This document shows positions 1,577-12,400 of a stretch of DNA of 64,000 nt, one piece after another (within the stretch, counting starts at the first letter, position 1; each line of letters starts with the position of its first letter). This DNA comes from Catajapyx aquilonaris (lineage: Eukaryota), in the NCBI GenBank assembly GCA_000934665.2, contig JYFJ02000128.1, forward strand, positions 1-64,000, given 5' to 3'. The position numbers were made by a program, and so were the translations under genes. The notes below the pieces were generated by a model. The model saw only the letters and a list, made by a program, of their open reading frames with translations, was not told where the DNA came from and searched no databases.

Positions 1577-2105
1577 GGAGCACCAACAGTCGATATGCAC
1601 TTTACCATGCAACTTTATTACCAAAAGTAATAATCATTTGTCTATACATTACACTATACTTATAGAGTGTGAGATCCCCTTTGTGAAATATTTCTCACGC
1701 CTGATGTGTAACTTTTATGTCTCACGAAAAATACGCGTTCGTAAAAAACGCGCCAAGTCTGTATACGTATTCCTCTGGCGAAAAAATTTGTGAGATCAGT
1801 GGGTGCAAAGTTCTATACTTAGCCCATAGGGGCCGTGCGTGCAGCAGATGTGAAGCGGAAATGACAGCAAAAAAGGCACACTGTACAGAAAACACCACTT
1901 CAATGGGAGCAATCCATTATGCCCTAACACCTTGACACAAACCACATTGTTTGGGTAAGCTCAGACTGATTCACAAAAATGAGGTCAGAATAATGCACAC
2001 GTTGTGGGCTGAATATACAGGAATATGAATATAACACATGTCTCTCAATACAGTTTGGCTTCTGCATTTGATCTGGTCTCTTTTGTAAAGACTGTACTTG
2101 ACAAA

Positions 2106-4619
2106 ATGCAGTTACATGAAACAAATATAATTATAGTGGTGATTTTGGCCACACCATTTGGTACTGATATTGGTGCACCAGTGGTTTGCACTAGTGAATT
2201 TTGTGTCAGTGGTTTTGTTCAGAACTCTACGAATGGCTATCCTATATACAGTTACCAAACAATTCCATACGCAGAACCTCCGATTGGAAGTCTCAGATTT
2301 ATGGTAAGTTACTAATAGCCTACTCTTTTTAATAATTATTGTCATAATACACTGCTTATTTAGCCACCGGTACCCATCACGTATGGGGCATCCACAATCA
2401 ACGGAACCGCTGATATGCCATTTTGCCATCAATTCAACATCTTTGGACCCGGGCAAATTATGGGTCAAGAGGACTGCCTTTATCTCAGTGTATTTTCCAG
2501 AAGGGTAAGATTGAAAAATATTGATTGTCATATCGTCTGTAGCCAAACGTTTCTATTTGCAGCGTCCAGGCAATTCTTGTAATACTGGCTTGCCTGTCAT
2601 GGTGTGGATATATGGTGGGGCATTTTTGTCTGGAGGTGGAAGCCCATCTATGTACGATCCAAGAGTCCTTCTCAGAGAGGAGATAGTCATGGTCTCGATG
2701 AATTATCGCCTAGGTGCCTTTGGTATGTCAATATCCCCTTTGCATATTTTCATAATTCAGTCAATACTGAACGAAATAATGACATGACTTATGACTTCAC
2801 ATGCAGGGTTCCTGAGCACTGCAGATGATGTGATCCAAGGAAATATGGGCTTAAAAGATCAAAATCTGGCGCTTAAATGGGTTCAACAGTACATCGCATA
2901 TTTTTGCGGTAATCCTAATCGTGTAACAATTGCAGGCGAGAGTGCTGGAAGTGTAAGCGTTCACTACCACATGCTGTCTCCTATGTCTGAAGGTAAACCT
3001 TAATTATATATTTTTGGCACTAGTGCTGTGTTATTATTTAAGCTGTTTTGCAGGGCTATTCCAACAAGCAATCCTCCAAAGTGGTACTGCAAGCTATTCG
3101 TATTGGGCCTATCAACCACCAAATAAAGCACTTGCAAGGGCTAAACAGGCAGCAGGGTTGCTGAATTGTCCCAGTGACAATTCCACAATAATCCTGGAAT
3201 GTATGCAGGCATCCACTGCCAATGACTTGGCTGGTTTATATCCAAGAACAACTGTGAGATATATTTGGCAATTACGTATGTATAAGTTCACTTGTGAACA
3301 TATTAATACTCTTCTAGGAATGGGACATACTTTCTCTCGTGCCTTTTGCACCAACAAAGGAAGTAGCAGGAAGTGACAGGTTCATGGCCAAAAGTCCCCA
3401 AGAGAGCATGGCAGCTGGAGATATGGCCAATGTTACTCTCATGGCAGGGATTTGCGACTCGGAGGGAGACTTTCTAGGGTCAGGTTGGTGACTTTTGTGC
3501 ACAACTAGTGCTCCTTTGTGAACTAACTTACATATTTCATTCAGGAATTTGGAGGAGAGGAACATACTGGGAGATAAACAATAACTACAGCTACATTTTT
3601 CCTATACTTATGAGCTACGAGCAGTGTGCTGCTGATGCTAACAGAACTTCTAACATGATCCGCAAATATTACTTCAAGTTTAGGAGCATATCTAATGCTA
3701 CAATATCAGAATTCATCAAGGTAAGTGTTTCAAAGAGATTTTCTTGATCTACAGTACAGGTGTCAATTTATAAAAACCTAGTCCTAATTTTTAATTGACT
3801 TATTGTCTTATGGTTTGTGCACAGGTGTAATAATGCACCTAAAATATTATATACAGTATCATGCAAACATTTTGTCATTTATAACACTGGGACAACATAC
3901 GGGACCTTTAGTAAATATTGACCCATAAGTTATAGCACTTTTCACCTTTTTGCTTGCTCTGTTTCCATACTCTATAGTTGTAATTAGCTTGGAAAATATT
4001 TTCTGTACATTGAGTCATGTAAACAGATGGTGTCAGACAGCTTCATAATATCTGGAAGTTACAAGACCATCAGAGATCATGTAGCTTTGCGAGCCCAGCA
4101 GTTCCCAACATACTTCTACATGTACACATTCAGAGGACCTATCACAGTTTCACAGCAAACAGGATTTGTGACTGGTGGACCAGAATACCAGCCTCAAGGT
4201 GCTTGCAATATTAATTTTTGAAAGTATCATTACTATTAAATTTATTCTTGCAGGCACATCTCATTTTGATGACATGTATCCATTGTTCTGGTTTCCTCCT
4301 AGCAATTTATTAATGCAAGAGGGTAGTCCAATGAGAAGAATGTCAGACAAAATGGTTTCCTGGTGGACCAATTTCATATCTTATGGGTATGGCATTCAAA
4401 TAAGAAAAACCTTTCAGTGCTTCCATGTTTCATATTGCATTTAGGAATCCTACTCCTCCTGGTGGAAAAGAATCTGACGTGACTTGGGATCCAGTAGAGG
4501 TGGAATCATTCAACGTATTCAATATGTCACTGACACCACTGATGCAAACACGTTTCTTCTACAGACGTGTAGAATTTTGGGAAAGCATTAACCTTCAAAA
4601 TCCAGACTGTTTCAAATAG
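2106..4619 (+). CDS. Type-B carboxylesterase (carboxyl/cholinesterase family), secreted, 10 exons, about 568 aa
   Basis: Exons 2106-2303, 2364-2504, 2563-2722, 2807-2992, 3054-3253, 3318-3483, 3545-3720, 4027-4198, 4254-4386, 4445-4619, all GT-AG and phase-consistent. Motifs [47 protein letters not shown] (Ser), DSEG (Glu), GTSHFDD (His), and a hydrophobic N-terminus. Confidence 0.95.
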
Positions 4620-4783
4620 TGAAAACTAAGTTAAGCATGGCCATTGGACTGTGTACACATGGAGCATAGCTACCTCTGCCACATGTGTAATGTTAGAAGT
4701 CAAGTCCCATTTCAAAATGAATATATTGTACATCACTGGTACTTAATTTTCCATAGTAGATTGTGTTTGCCTGCCTGCTCTGG

Positions 4784-4789
4784 AATAAA
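4784..4789 (+). terminator. Candidate polyadenylation signal of the carboxylesterase
   Basis: AATAAA 165 nt after the stop codon. Confidence 0.5.
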
Positions 4790-5433
4790 TAATATATTTG
4801 TTCACATGAAACATTCTGTTTATTAACTATTTTAGATAACGGTGGATGGAGTATTTGTGCAACATAGATAGATCTGGGACTACAAATTCAGGGTGCAAGA
4901 GGGACGTGTGGAATGATAGCTATGCAAGGAGAAAGAAAATGTATGGATATACTGCCTAACACAAACCTAGAAGGAAAGGCAAGAACTTGCTTGTTTCTCT
5001 TTTACTTACGTAGCACCATTGTTCAGCAATAAAAACATACATAGGAGGTAGAAGGGGGGTCAGTTTGGAGGAAATGACACTTGATTTACCATAGATATAT
5101 TTTTCCTTTTTTGTTGGACTCTTGAACTGTGTGTCTTACATGTGATGGACACATCGAGTAGACTGATCACCTTCTATTACTAACTCGCATTGGCACAATT
5201 TTTCCTCGTACACTAACGAGTTTAACAGGCGAACACATGGGTGAGAAATGTAATAATAATAATAATTAATAAAAAAAATCACACTTTTCCCTCTCTTTTC
5301 CTGGGGGTTCTCTTCACAAAATACTAAACATGTATGATACCTCAGTCAGGTGTATTCCAAGGAAAAAAAAAATAGCCTGGGGGTTGTGAGTTCATGAGCA
5401 ACAACAGTAAGCAAATGAAGTTGCACATAAAAA

Positions 5434-5439
5434 TTTATT
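5434..5439 (-). terminator. Candidate distal polyadenylation signal of perlecan
   Basis: AATAAA on the minus strand about 950 nt after the stop at 6390. Another copy lies at 5892-5897. Confidence 0.45.
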
Positions 5440-6389
5440 ATTGTCAAGGGAATTGCACGTACCCTTTAGTCCCCTTACTAAAATGACTGCGCAAGGAAGG
5501 AAAATTAAGCGTCTATAAGCTAACGGCTAGTGTACACTACACTTGTTGCATGCAACAAAACCTGCTTCAGATCTGTTGAATGCAACATGCTTAATGCCTG
5601 TGTACACACACCTTAAGTTTGACACATGGAGCACCAGCAAACGATCACGCTCTCATTTTCTCAACTCGTTCTCACTTGTATTTTCTACCAATTCTATTCC
5701 GCATGTTGTGCTGTACAATACATGTTTCGATACAAAAGGCACTGTGATCAATCCTTCCCTCAGATAAAAAAATTAAACAATTAAGTGTAAAAAGACATCA
5801 TCATCCATTCCATATTCACTCCACAATCAAATGCATACATATCCCAATCGTTATTTAATTTCTTTTGCTCCGTTCCCCTCCCCCCCCCATATTTATTATT
5901 ACAAAATGTGGGTTCACTTTGTTGTGGAGAACCCTCAACACGAACAGGCTGCGAACTAAAAAGTAAGAATGGCAGTTTCTCATTGTTTCTCATTGTCACT
6001 TATGGCCTAAAAGTAACAAGTGGCAGTTACGGGCAAACCTGTTGTATTTTGTGTTCACACAGCTGGTGAACGACAAACTACTTAGGAAAAAACAAAAACG
6101 GTGGCAGTGCCATAGCAAAGTCTTCTAAAGCCATCGGTGACAACTGAGCCCACGCAAAGTAAGAGTTTCTACAACTGTCAGTGTGTATGAAATAAGCGTT
6201 TAGAATGAAAATCTGTGTTAAAACCACGCTCTGCCTTCAGTCCGTTGGTTCTCAAAAGTTGGGTTTTTTTTTCTGAGGTCGAATGCTTGTTAAAAAGAGT
6301 CCCTTCCTTTGTCACAAAAGTGTCTACATGCATCATCATCATTCGACTTGGCGTTTCACGAGGGGAGAAACAAAATGTTGTTAAGTCCT

Positions 6390-6489
6390 TTATACTTCAC
6401 GTGTTGCACGATTCAGTCCCTCCACAAAATTGTCCTCATAGTCTTCGTCGTCTTCGTCGTCTTCTGCTTGTTGCTGCTGCTGAGTATTG
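6390..6489 (-). CDS. Candidate distal alternative last exon of perlecan: acidic tail
   Basis: Acceptor TTTTCTCTTAACTACAG, phase-2 match giving [33 protein letters not shown]. Minus-strand AATAAA at 5892-5897 and 5434-5439. Confidence 0.7.
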
Positions 6490-9400
6490 CTGTAGTTAAG
6501 AGAAAACTTGTCAACATGTGTCCAGACAGAGATGAGTCACATTCATGGACATGAATACATGCACTATTCGTGCACTACAACTAACCACTGTTGGTAGTCC
6601 CAGAGTGAAGAGTGCATCTGCTAAAATATTGTCAGTTTCCACTCTCTTCTCTGTGAGTGGATACTGAATTTGCCTGCACTCTTGACTCTGGGATCGATGA
6701 CGATGGGCTTGAAAACAAGGTAACAATTTTGTAGACCGATAGTCAATGCTTTAAAAAATTGTAATTAGGTTAATTACATAGATAAATTCCACTACAACTA
6801 AAGTTTCATAAAGGCAGGAAAATGGTGATGCAATTTTTGTAAGTGAAAATAAGTGCTTGTTGCGCTGAATGGTTCACATGCTGCATACATATGGTATGCT
6901 TTTTATTATAGCATAAAATATAAAAAGAGGTGGTCGGGATATTTTGAACCATCCAATGTCACCAATGGACAATTCATACTTTCTCAGAATATGCCCTGAG
7001 GTTTTTGCCACACAATACTCTGTTCCCAAAACACGAGCCGAATTAAAAATTTCAACTGGCCCATCTCTTATCTTGCACAGTTACTACTCTAAGAAAAAAC
7101 ATGTCCTTCCCCTTCCTACGATATCTCCACACCCATGCCAACAATTTACTTGCCGTGAAACCCTCTTGCCGAGAAGGGGTGGGTGTAGCTGAGGCAGCTT
7201 GTGCATGTGAGACGCACAAAAAAAAAGAATATGTAACAAAAGTGGAGCCACCTACGAGAGTGAGCTCGGCATGTGAGTGAAAGGCATGTGTGTGGTGGTG
7301 GACAAGGTGACACCCAGGAGTGTGAGTGTGAGGAGCAGGCTGGGATGAAATGATTGGGAGGCATGGGAGGATGATCTGGAGGGTGATATTGAATTGTGCA
7401 AAGAAGATGCAGAAGACCATGACCCCCAAGAAGGGGTTGTGGTAGTGCGGGAGATGCGAGGCACCCGTGTGGGTCGGGTGCGTGAGATGCGTATGGAGGG
7501 TCGGGTCTGGTGTCGTGTGGTTGACGGTGGTGGTGTTGGGGTGGTGGAGGGTTCGCGCAGGTTCAGTACCAAAGAATCAGATGTCCAACGCCTCCTGAGG
7601 CAGCGTTAGAAATGGGGGCACAATAGGTAAGCCGAGACTCTTATCACAGCTGACTGCATTAGTACAATTTATGGTGTTGGACATGGCAAACTCACCTGGA
7701 GCAGGCACGAACATTCTCAGCGGAAACAGCACTGGCAAAGAGGTCAATTATGCCTGAGTTTTGGATCTGCACAGATCGTATGCAGCCTGAGAAGCCTTTG
7801 GTGTAGCGACTGGCAGTCATCAGTCTCAGGTCAGGGAGGCCACCTAGAATTAATTTTCATGTAGATAATTATAAGTTGCATGAAATAGTGATTATTTCAA
7901 CCCACACCAGCCAGATTCCCCACCCAACAGGTGGAAAGTCGAACCAAGTCCTTACCAATGTAGATGTTTCCTTGTGCATTGAGCATGAGCAGGATGCCAT
8001 GGCTCTCTCCAGATTGTTGCTGCACACCATCCAGTTCAATGGTTCCTTCTCTAGCAGTGCGCCGAAGCACAACTTTGTGGACCTTCCCATCATCTACTTT
8101 TGTGGTGGTTCGAATCTCAGCAGGACCTGACCCAAGTTCATAGCTGAACTCCAGGTAGCCACCAACAACTGCCCAAAAAAGTATTACGTGAGTACATTAT
8201 AATTACAATACAGCTTTGGACACTTTCTCATAAGATATGCATGTGAATCTGCGATAATATTGTGCTCATATGACATCAAATTCTCCCTTTCAGTGTTCAT
8301 CGCGTCATAAACAGAGTTTCTAACCTGCAAGTGCCAGATAGTCATGGGCTTTTCCATCTACATCTGGAGGCTGTCCATGCCAGAGGATGACTCCGTCACT
8401 CTCAATAGTTGCGAATTCCAGAGTGACTACTTCTGTTTCAGTGCTGGTGGCATGGGGGAGGTAGTCCTTGCTAAGCTCCACATATCCATCTCCCTGAAAC
8501 TTGACATCCTCTGCGAACTTCACCTCTGCAATGCAAGTAACAGAGATGTTATGAGAACTCTAATTAAATGAATTCAGGTGTTTACATATCAGTATGACTT
8601 ACGATCTTGGCAATTTTCACCAGAGAATCCTAGAGGACACCTGCATTTGTATGAATGGGATGTTCCAACACAACTGCCGCCATTCTTGCATGGCTGCGTC
8701 CGATGACATATTGAGTCCTCAACTTCACAGTTCTTTCCACTGAATGCAGATGGACACTGACACTCGTAATCATTGATGGCTACTCCAACTTCCCTGCACT
8801 GGCCATTATTGCGGCAAGGCTTGCGTTGGCAAGGGGATACACTCCCACAGTCCTCTACATTTGCAGCATCCACTACAGATGACACCAGGTCGAGGTCAAG
8901 CCCAGACACTTCTACTTCTGACACACACCCAGAGAATCCATCCATGACATCAACCCCAGGTGCCAAACGAATCCTCTGCCGATCAAACCCACCCACATAC
9001 AGTGGTGTACGAAGGTTGAGACCTCTGGTGGAACCAGGGCTCTGTCCTTTGACTTCCCAGTCTTCGTTTATGGTCATGATTCCTTCTTGCATGTCTCTAT
9101 CTGCAACCACTTTAAGCCACTCTCCAGGGCGAACCTCCTCCTCACTGCGAAGGACAGCAGGACCAGATCCCGTATCAAAGCGGAATTCCAGACGCCGGTC
9201 TCTGATAGCAAGGGAGGTGAAGTCGCCATGGCCATCTTCAGACTGCGCACAATACATCAGGACAGAGTCCTTCACCTCGTGAGGCTTGAATCGCATTGCC
9301 ATTCTCAACCTGTAAGTGACATTTTATTAGTATAATGTACGTACACCGATGTACACATGTGGACTGTTATTAGAACATATGACATGAAGGTCACTGTACC

Positions 9401-12400
9401 TTCTGAGCCCTTTAGGAGTTGGATATGCCACGTATGCATCGTCAGCGAAGGCAGGTTCATAGATGACGATATCCTTCTCACACCTGTCTCCAGTCTTTCC
9501 AAATGGACAGTAGCACTCAAATCCTCCATGGACATCAATGCACCGTCCACTTCCACATGCAGCTGGGTAGCAGGCCTCCCCAACCTTCTCACAGTCCCGT
9601 CCAGAAAAGCCTGCAGGACATATGCATGCATAGCCCTGGTCAGTGTGGGCCTCTTGACACACCCCTCCGTTGGTGCATGGGTTGAGGGCACATGTCTCAC
9701 ACGTTGTCACTCCCTGGGTGCTCACTGCGTCACGCACCAGATCTGCCTCGGATGTGCCTAGGATTAGACGGCTCACACACCCAACAAACCCGCGTGTGTG
9801 ACCTGCCAGTCGATGTATGCGCGAAGGGTCTGGAACACCCCCTATGTAAAGTGGTTCAACTAAGTCTAATCCTTGGAAGCGTCCCTCAGCAACACCAGAC
9901 ACAGGTGGTTGGTCATCTACCACCAGCACACCATCCTTCTTGTTCCGCTTCAGTTTTGCAGTGTGCCATTTCCCAACTTCTAAAGGCTTCTCAGATCGAA
10001 TGACAGCTGGACCAGAACCAACATCAAACCGGAATTCAGCATATCCTCCACTCAATCCGAATGACACAAAGTCACCTGCTCTTTCGCGGTCTTGCCACTG
10101 CCCATTGTAAAGTATCAGTCCATCAGTTGATTCAGGCTTGAATGAAATCTCAACATTGAACTGCAGGTATGCGTCAGGGAGTGTTGGTAATGACACGTAG
10201 CTGACTGGAGCCTGGGCAAAGTACGGCACAACACCAGTGACCACTAGCACAGTCGGTATGTCCATTGAGAGCTTGTTATTGCGTGCAGTGCAGACGTATG
10301 TTCCTGCCTCTGATGCTCTGACATCTGGTATGCTGAGGGAAGGTCCCTGAATCTGAGCCATCCGTGGGAGAATTCCACCCTGTTTCGCCCAGGTGAATGT
10401 GACGGGTGGCTCCAGGTCTGTGCGGCAATCCATCACGACCGTTGAACCAAATGGTGCAGTCCGGGTCTCCACTGGTTGATCCAGTACGGGCATGTCCGAG
10501 TGGGCTAAGCATCCAAAGAAAGGTGGGCCAGAAGGAGGGTGTGGGGGTATCAAGGGGAGGGTGGGTATTGTGATTAATCACTGCATGCCAGCCCAAGGCA
10601 ATTTGTGGGGGTGGGGTAACTGCCACTTAATAAGCTTGTGGTGTGTTTGATTAATTTGTGTAAGCATGTGTTCGATTAACGTGTGGAAGGGAGAGCATAT
10701 TGCGTGTGTGGTACTCACCAGGTATAACAGCCAGGTATAAGCGGCATTTAAAAGAACCATAAAATAATTGAGGGAGAGAGAGAGAGAGTCCCATTATTTC
10801 TCATTTGTGTGGCATCAGCTGTCCCTTGTGGCATTTAAGCAAGTGAATAATTATCACATGCCATTTACAATAAACATATTTACAGAGTAGCTAAATATTA
10901 TGAAAGGAAGTAAATGTAAACGCAGATTAAGCAGATTATGAAATGACAGGACAAAGAGAGAGATAGATAGATAGAGAGATGAAACAGGAAGTTCGGAGGT
11001 TAGTGAACACGAGGTCCATTGTCATCATCATCTGTTAAGTGAATGGAGTAGGGGAAGAGGGTGAAGAGACACACATTATAGAAGTTCAGAGAGAGAGATC
11101 TGAAACACACACATGCACTAATCCTATGACCTTACCTCCGCTGTTAAATGATATTAATCTGCCCACCAATTCATTGCTTACCCTGGATGGCCAGCACATA
11201 ATCATCTTCATACACCCCCGTGTCGGTCACAGCTTGGCAGCGGTAAACTCCACCATTGTCTGCATTCACTCCGACCACCCTGAAAAATGTATTAAAAAGT
11301 GTCACAACTACAAGTACTAAAGCGCCGAGTGCAAAACATATGAGAAAAGTTTTTGAACATGTAAATTTTGGATTGGGTAGAGGTGAGGTTTGCCTGCCTC
11401 TCTATGAACTTAAAAGTATGTTCATCTGCGCTAATTTCATTTGTCAAGTTTTCTTTACACTTTATTATGCAACGTAGCTTATATTACCTTATGGTGTTGC
11501 CCAGCACTTGGACATTGTTGGCGAGATGACTGCCAACTTTATGCCACTGGATTTCTGGTTGCCTCGTGTGACCTGAAGCCTCGCAGCTAATGTCGACAGT
11601 GTCACCCAGACGAACCTGATCATGGCTTGCCCACACTCGAACAGTCACATCAGCGACACCTGAAATAATGGTACCAATTCACACCACAAATTCAAGCCAC
11701 AGTGTTGCACGATTAATGACATGACAGGCATGCGTTGAGGTTCTACCATACTTCAAAACACTGGTTAGGTCGCATGCATAAAAAAAAGGTGTGTGTCGAC
11801 AAGACAAAAGAAGCGTGTGAAGTCTAGTTGCATCTGAGAATGAAAATGAAAATGAACCATTTCCATTTTCATTCTGTCTTTTTTTATTATCATGCACCAA
11901 CCCCGTCTAGGTCGGGGGACTTCTTCGCTGGAATCGTCGTTGTGGCAATCCTTCTTGTTGTTCTTCCTACGCATTTCCCGTTCTAAGAATGCTTCGATTT
12001 GAGTGTGGGAAGAAATTGTCAATTAAGCACTGGTTGTTAGCCTCCATAAACCATGTCAAGTTATTAGTGTTAACCTCTACAGCTATCATTTCCCATGCTG
12101 TAGTTTCCATCATGATAATCTCACTTACTTTCCACTTTGAGGATCACAAATTCGGTGGAGTACCCGGATGGGGTGCTTGCCTCGCATATGTACTTCCCTT
12201 CGTCGAATGATTGCACATTCACAATGCTCAGGATGCCATTCTCCACGAAAGAGTTATAAGGTAGCTGCTCTTCTCCCTCTTTTGTCCATTTCACCTGGGC
12301 ATAAGAGGCTTCCGGAAGGTTGCACTCCAAGTCCACCGTGGAGCCGGTAATAGCTATGTGAGTGCGCTGGTTGGGGTTCACTGGTTGAGGAACTTCTATA

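Follow-up and report, generated by a model that had tools for sequence, protein, structure and literature searches.

The stretch of DNA analyzed here, referred to as the window, is 64,000 nt of Catajapyx aquilonaris contig JYFJ02000128.1, and it carries the 3′ end of a perlecan gene on its minus strand. The DNA is single-copy in genome G000. Domain V consists of three LG domains with EGF pairs between them and Ig repeats before them, and an ordered tblastn map of a mayfly perlecan, together with Pfam matches, places the LDLa, laminin, Ig and domain V regions in the order known from perlecan (HSPG2, or Trol in Drosophila), namely SEA, LDLa, laminin B/EGF, Ig and LG-EGF2-LG-EGF2-LG. Twenty-three LDLa motifs lie upstream in the window. 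Beyond it, SEA-region matches and three more LDLa motifs are found at 73.7–77.4 kb of contig C48 in the same genome, and the exon following the signal peptide is placed near C48:79,640. A scan of C48:79.7–114 kb under a strict filter gave no candidate for the signal-peptide exon; two related proteins, P0313 and P0156, begin with hydrophobic leaders as judged by eye.

In a quick tree of domain V, the gene is unplaced among arthropods and lies outside the sampled arachnid and malacostracan groups, and its nearest row is Timema at 61% identity. The genome holds one weak 7tm_6 match and one weak odorant-binding match. A second gene in the window, carboxylesterase-like by eye, lies on the plus strand at about 2000–4500 in convergent orientation towards the end of the perlecan gene, and a few hundred bases separate its last exon from the distal perlecan AATAAA.

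The features of the 3′ end are listed in Table 1. The phase-2 donor, 101-nt intron, CTAAC acceptor, 113-codon frame and AATAAA at 6902–6907 reported in the initial annotation were all verified, as were the small-residue run, the 12-residue hydrophobic core and the 16 residues that follow it. Positions in that picture of the gene end were right, but it missed two further outcomes of the same donor: the read-through TGA and a second, RNA-supported last exon at 6489, whose tail amounts to 33 residues by translation, split codon included. The tryptophan (W) that opens the conserved start of the proximal exon lies five residues past the last cysteine of LG3.

Table 1. Features at the 3′ end of the perlecan gene in the window
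Feature	Position	Strand	Basis
Last Ig repeat and domain V (LG1-EGF-EGF-LG2-EGF-EGF-LG3), five exons	7696..10504	-	Pfam Ig, Laminin_G and EGF matches; run X1 joints; tblastn map of full-length mayfly perlecan
Last LG3 exon, ending in the shared phase-2 GT donor	7696..7843	-	Sequence; donor used in run X1
In-frame TGA reached on donor read-through (candidate tail-less, soluble end)	7692..7694	-	Sequence; like arrangement in L002
101-nt intron to the proximal acceptor	7595..7695	-	Branch-point-like CTAAC at 7609, CAG acceptor; splice unseen in run X1
Coding part of the proximal alternative last exon: 113 codons plus TAG (7254-7252)	7252..7594	-	Sequence; GC 56.6%
Conserved ten-residue start of the proximal exon, W-x-[SP]-[SD]-S-L-[VI]-[LF]	7564..7593	-	Motif rank; held-out references
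Lineage-specific stalk rich in Ser/Thr/Pro/Arg (residues 12-73), with four R-x-x-R sites	7375..7560	-	Sequence; insect tails lack the stalk
Small-residue run, candidate omega (anchor attachment) site	7351..7386	-	Sequence and heuristic; putative
12-residue hydrophobic core, mean Kyte-Doolittle 2.36, then 16 uncharged residues	7303..7338	-	Hydropathy
AATAAA, candidate polyadenylation signal for the proximal exon	6902..6907	-	Sequence; AATAAA likewise after the L002 proximal exon
Long hairpin, single-copy, lying after the proximal AATAAA and before the distal acceptor	6598..6693	-	z -6.9
Coding part of the distal alternative last exon, giving a short acidic tail, TAA at 6392-6390	6390..6489	-	Run X1 joint 7696 to 6489; translation
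Distal-exon 3′ UTR, with its end close to the AATAAA at 4824-4819	4819..6389	-	Run X1 contig covers 6489-5400; end near 4840 by its length

Candidate roles for the long hairpin include a splice or polyadenylation regulator, an editing substrate or a new microRNA precursor; Rfam returned no matches in 4700–7900. A hairpin across the proximal acceptor was considered and dismissed as insignificant (z -0.7).

Run X1, the only public run with this stretch, is not recorded as RNA and behaves as spliced RNA. A single contig among its 85,611 records fits positions 5400–11400, with six GT-AG joints, and it joins the donor at 7695 to 6489, skipping 1,206 nt that include the proximal exon. The form seen in this run is the secreted one. 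The initial annotation had proposed a check for a 7696/7594 junction in RNA, and the contig gives solely the 7696 to 6489 joint, with zero cover at 6490–7695. Because contigs drop rare variants, the junction is neither seen nor excluded in this one contig run, and the zero cover is not proof that the proximal exon goes unused. The contig also has an upstream splice that closes the frame, and for this reason it may merge isoforms.

Other splice sites nearby suggest further ends and starts of the gene. In the region 11182–11031 and 11031–10504 (minus strand), run X1 uses an acceptor at 11031 in place of the in-frame one at 10504; the reading frame thereby gains a few acidic residues before it meets a stop, and the contig is thereafter unspliced. 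The product would be a shortened perlecan without domain V and the last Ig repeat, comparable to the 3′-truncated trol-RAG/RAX forms. At about 10718 (minus strand) there is a strong consensus donor, unused in run X1 and with a compatible-frame ATG upstream, which possibly belongs to the first exon of a short form consisting of domain V only.

Related proteins, all of them gene models or RefSeq predictions, were collected through protein searches, cluster look-ups and one profile search, giving 448 proteins. The profile search of representatives used the whole of domain V and was diluted by Notch/Crumbs-like proteins, 47 of the 150 rows listed being inspected. A strong LG3 match with the terminal cysteine motif was present in 188 of the 448, which yielded 68 distinct tails: 19 of four residues or fewer, 40 polar, six hydrophobic, one partial with the tryptophan motif and two of more than 200 residues, in a set biased by the presence of a beetle tail among the queries and counted exclusive of the Drosophila and amphipod proteins, which fell below the score cut. 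Arthropod polar tails are mostly short and acidic like that of the distal exon in the window, for example in Timema, spiders, Calanus, Ranatra and many beetles; in decapods and krill they are basic. Perlecans of named vertebrates, echinoderms and molluscs in the set end four residues or fewer past the last cysteine. As a side observation, the short acidic tail, often tyrosine-bearing (window 6390–6489; P0002, P0009, P0011), is widespread in spiders, copepods and insects and absent from those named non-arthropod perlecans.

Tails that start with the tryptophan motif occur in Dendroctonus, Asbolus, Abscondita, the XP_017768750 cluster (which we take to be from a burying beetle), XP_063983679 (presumably a hymenopteran) and Cloeon isoform X6. 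The first ten codons of the proximal exon match tail starts in one mayfly, four beetles and two hymenopteran-like sequences. The Cloeon RefSeq isoform has six of the ten motif residues in common with the window. All of these tails except that of Cloeon carry an added proline-rich motif, which is common to two Drosophila gene models, and then a hydrophobic end. Firefly model P0154 has the motif and runs on without a hydrophobic end. The insect proximal-type tails are 55–91 residues long and lack the stalk seen in the window.

Both tail classes can be found within one gene or 90% cluster, namely the XP_017768750 cluster, Dendroctonus and XP_063983679/693, and Drosophila palustris and D. subpalustris have the hydrophobic class, whereas D. 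innubila has the other. In the XP_017768750 RefSeq cluster, 14 of the 15 listed isoforms are hydrophobic and one is acidic; one of the hydrophobic isoforms lacks two residues at the junction, a hint that the acceptors listed in this cluster are read-supported. In Dendroctonus, three tails are seen (P0038, P0153, P0152), two of them short and acidic and one hydrophobic.

The genomic arrangement in another lineage is provided by metagenome contigs, which were scanned with the proline motif and gave two loci, near-identical to each other. One of these, L002, is an insect genomic contig whose last LG3 exon is 85% identical to XP_063983679. The donor there is phase 2 and runs into a stop on read-through. 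Its proximal acceptor, 535 nt on, opens an exon that encodes the tryptophan motif and then a hydrophobic tail, and this exon is followed by an AATAAA; a pyrimidine-rich acceptor 1,644 nt on would open a distal exon, predicted to encode a 17-residue charged tail. The predicted order in L002 is the same arrangement as in the window: read-through stop, proximal hydrophobic exon with AATAAA, and distal charged exon. In both loci the proximal acceptors (window 7595–7610; L002 2190–2201) are GC-containing and pyrimidine-poor with YGCY words, and the distal acceptors are T-rich. The common YGCY ending could be a shared site for a splicing regulator, if such words carry the meaning that we assume for them.

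How far the proximal exon exceeds chance was judged by an anchored motif score that used the mayfly tail start and three beetle tail starts as references and covered AG sites on both strands. With a motif window picked after the alignment had been seen, the first ten codons score 24.7 and rank first of 7,311 AG sites (next 18.2). The ten-residue start likewise ranks first among 127,936 six-frame 10-mers. When six insect references were used singly, two of them held out, the ten-residue ranks were 1, 1, 3, 1, 1 and 1 of 7,304; the ranks lay at 1–8 over 8–15 residues and at 1–22 at 20 residues. For the amphipod and Drosophila tails and for four acidic ones, the ranks lie between 900 and 4,187 of 7,304. 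On this basis the Drosophila start (2,949) was rejected as a motif match, its tail being tied to the beetle tails solely through the second, proline-rich motif, and amphipod P0019 (900) was rejected as a homologous tail. The latter has an S/P-rich stalk and a hydrophobic end but no tryptophan motif, and a diverged homolog, an independent gain and a model artefact are all candidates for its origin.

Composition is also exon-like. The GC content of the proximal ORF, 56.6%, compares with 49–53% in five RNA-supported exons and 33–47% in five introns, and it falls to 41% past the proximal stop.

Conservation does not extend to the tail as a whole. When the 2,075 ORFs of the window were searched with whole-tail profiles from four reference sets, the proximal ORF fell outside the top six each time (the whole-tail profile comprising six whole tails). 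Since whole-tail profiles miss the ORF, the homology of the proximal exon appears to be short and position-bound, covering about 15–20 residues. Pfam gave no family for the proximal tail, and the ESM Atlas gave no usable match for the tail of P0444. The search for an equivalent exon after LG3 in relatives, as suggested in the initial annotation, succeeded for the first ten residues, the frame and the phase, but not for the whole tail.

A chance ORF in the intron, with the acidic exon and read-through as the only real ends, would account for the skipping of the exon in run X1 and for the negative whole-tail profiles. It would also suit the frequency of the GPI-like layout, which our own permissive heuristic finds at 27 of 3,518 YAG sites in the window, so that this layout alone is weak proof against chance. 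Against it stand the first rank among 7,311 AG sites, with 60 AG sites inside the 1,206-nt intron to choose from, and the like architecture in L002. The motif ranks and held-out references already largely refute such an origin, which is very unlikely on sequence grounds and, as a reading of the whole locus, scarcely credible. The data instead support the proximal exon as an alternative last exon of perlecan with insect counterparts, most of which have a GPI-like hydrophobic end; the alternative last exon of the initial annotation thus gains relatives, but it is skipped in run X1.

The encoded tail has the layout of an anchor signal. Its best 12-residue hydropathy (Table 1) lies among the values of other proximal-type tails: Cloeon 2.78, P0156 2.66, L002 2.22, Dendroctonus 2.18, Drosophila 1.92, P0444 1.78 and Asbolus (partial) 1.22. 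Among distal-type tails, 15 had sufficient length for scoring, and none of them exceeds 0.78; by chance 25 of 192 distinct ORF ends have a 12-mer reaching 2.0. A serine run lies 5–12 residues ahead of the core. By the heuristic and hydropathy, small omega and omega+2 residues, a polar spacer and a C-terminal hydrophobic segment are all present, although the same heuristic fails three of the seven database tails (Asbolus partial, Drosophila and P0444). The best 19-mer of the tail averages 1.23, too weak for a type I transmembrane segment, and is followed by no basic residues; because of this value and the absence of charge in the last 30 residues, a membrane span with a cytoplasmic tail is disfavoured. 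The term "receptor-like", used in the initial annotation, was accordingly an overreach for a tail with neither a transmembrane nor a cytoplasmic segment, and the LDLa richness cited for it is normal for arthropod perlecans, the full mayfly protein having 22 Pfam LDLa stretches.

A real, conserved exon could nevertheless encode something other than a GPI signal: a short membrane anchor in some lineages, a cleaved peptide for ER retention or secretion timing, or a self-association segment, in which case the conserved start would matter, for instance by capping LG3 or adding a strand to it. Conservation does reside in the first 10–35 residues and leaves out the hydrophobic end. Each of the two hymenopteran-like tails contains a pair of hydrophobic patches, with 19-mers of 1.46–1.75, and Cloeon and Drosophila reach 1.94 and 1.84. 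The two hymenopteran-like tails also run on for 26–27 residues after the best hydrophobic stretch, and the Dendroctonus tail ends in basic residues. Usual GPI propeptides measure about 17–31 residues; the piece predicted to be removed, with the omega position set by heuristic, is about 35–40 residues in the window, long for this class, and about 27 in Cloeon and 25 in P0156, whereas the hymenopteran-like tails exceed even the window in length here. Yet GPI signals conserve a property at the very end and not a sequence, and the hydrophobic ends of the relatives, with their unconserved sequence, are therefore GPI-signal-like. In addition, small residues stand 7–12 positions before the core, and basic cytoplasmic tails are absent, in the window, Cloeon, P0156 and Drosophila. 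A tail of another kind is thus unlikely, though it deserves to be kept in mind.

The stalk belongs to this lineage. Residues 12–73 are 74% S/T/P/R, with 36 of the 62 being S/T/P and ten being R, and by composition the stretch is a candidate for mucin-type O-glycosylation. The mucin-type stalk of the initial annotation is present as an S/T/P/R-rich stretch, but it is not the conserved part, which comprises the ten-residue start and the hydrophobic end. The stalk contains two copies of one five-residue peptide (7445–7491), and the two differences between their coding sequences both fall on third codon positions, which weakly suggests that the peptide is under selection.

Stalk and tail together exceed every insect tail in the set in length, which, together with the zero cover and the skipping joint in run X1, fits an exon that functions in insects and is silent or decaying in this species, the stalk being drift in a rarely used exon. 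The acceptor, however, is intact, 113 codons are open, the motif is in register, and the exon-like GC drops after the stop. A dead exon should moreover have eroded, given how distant this lineage is from the closest relative sampled, at 61% identity in domain V. Loss of function in this species is accordingly improbable.

The reading that probably fits best is a conserved choice between a secreted and a GPI-anchored perlecan, laid out like the R, H and T forms of vertebrate acetylcholinesterase. One donor after the last laminin-G domain would lead to three ends. Read-through would reach an immediate stop. Splicing to the near acceptor at 7594, with polyadenylation at about 6900, would add the conserved ten-residue linker, a flexible stalk and the putative GPI-anchor signal. 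Splicing to the far acceptor at 6489, the route taken in run X1, adds the short acidic tail and would give the common secreted form. By analogy with acetylcholinesterase, polyadenylation near 6900 would remove the far acceptor and force the use of the near one or read-through. In the ER, a transamidase would cut at the serine run, drop the hydrophobic tail and attach the glycolipid, so that the whole protein would stay attached to the surface of its producing cell, with LG3 nearest the membrane. Shedding could follow through a phospholipase or a protease, for which the unconserved R-x-x-R of the stalk is a candidate site.

It may be, more tentatively, that a GPI-anchored perlecan has been kept across hexapods, and perhaps across all mandibulates, since before winged insects, that it has gone unrecognised in Drosophila melanogaster, and that it explains cell-autonomous, non-diffusing pools of perlecan such as those around ovarian niche cap cells; this broader proposal is possible but doubtful. 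The age is weakly suggested by the few odorant-receptor and odorant-binding matches, which hint at a non-winged lineage. Since the exon is contained in the gene models of two Drosophila species, a model organism is available in which to delete or tag it. Perlecan annotation misses this conserved exon in most arthropod records of the set.

Perlecan and trol are known for many splice forms, some cut short at the 3′ end, and for trol 23 isoforms with two transcription ends have been described, in an account whose consulted portions make no mention of GPI (PMC8405445). Perlecan is described as secreted and is set against the GPI-linked glypicans (PMC10328508, PMC4321038), whereas the proximal form predicted in the window would be GPI-anchored. 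In the titles and opening lines of abstracts of the perlecan and trol literature, mostly outside subscription journals, an anchored perlecan is unreported. In fly genetics, Trol is treated as secreted and long-range, and the glypicans and syndecan as tethered and short-range (PMC4321038), a division that would be less sharp if Trol could be tethered. Tethering would also offer a testable answer to a point left unexplained in print, namely why perlecan from niche cells is deposited cell-autonomously and spreads very little (PMC8405445).

Parallels are found among other proteins. In acetylcholinesterase, one donor serves a soluble read-through form, a GPI form through a proximal acceptor with its own polyadenylation, and another tail through a distal acceptor (PMC5388418). 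The splice architecture is the same as in the window; the protein is unrelated, and the likeness is one of analogy only. Its regulators are hnRNP H and CstF64. Brevican, a proteoglycan secreted into the matrix, has one splice form that is GPI-linked (PMC4859157), so that GPI splice forms of secreted proteins are known, and a GPI perlecan was not found in print. The GPI form of brevican loses C-terminal modules, whereas the candidate anchor in the window follows an intact domain V. Glypicans (Dally, Dally-like) are GPI-anchored heparan sulfate proteoglycans that act at short range and are shed by lipase (PMC4859157); in contrast to their constitutive anchorage on another core protein, the perlecan anchor would be optional, and, if the proposal is true, a splice switch would make perlecan both a travelling component of the basement membrane and a cell-surface proteoglycan.
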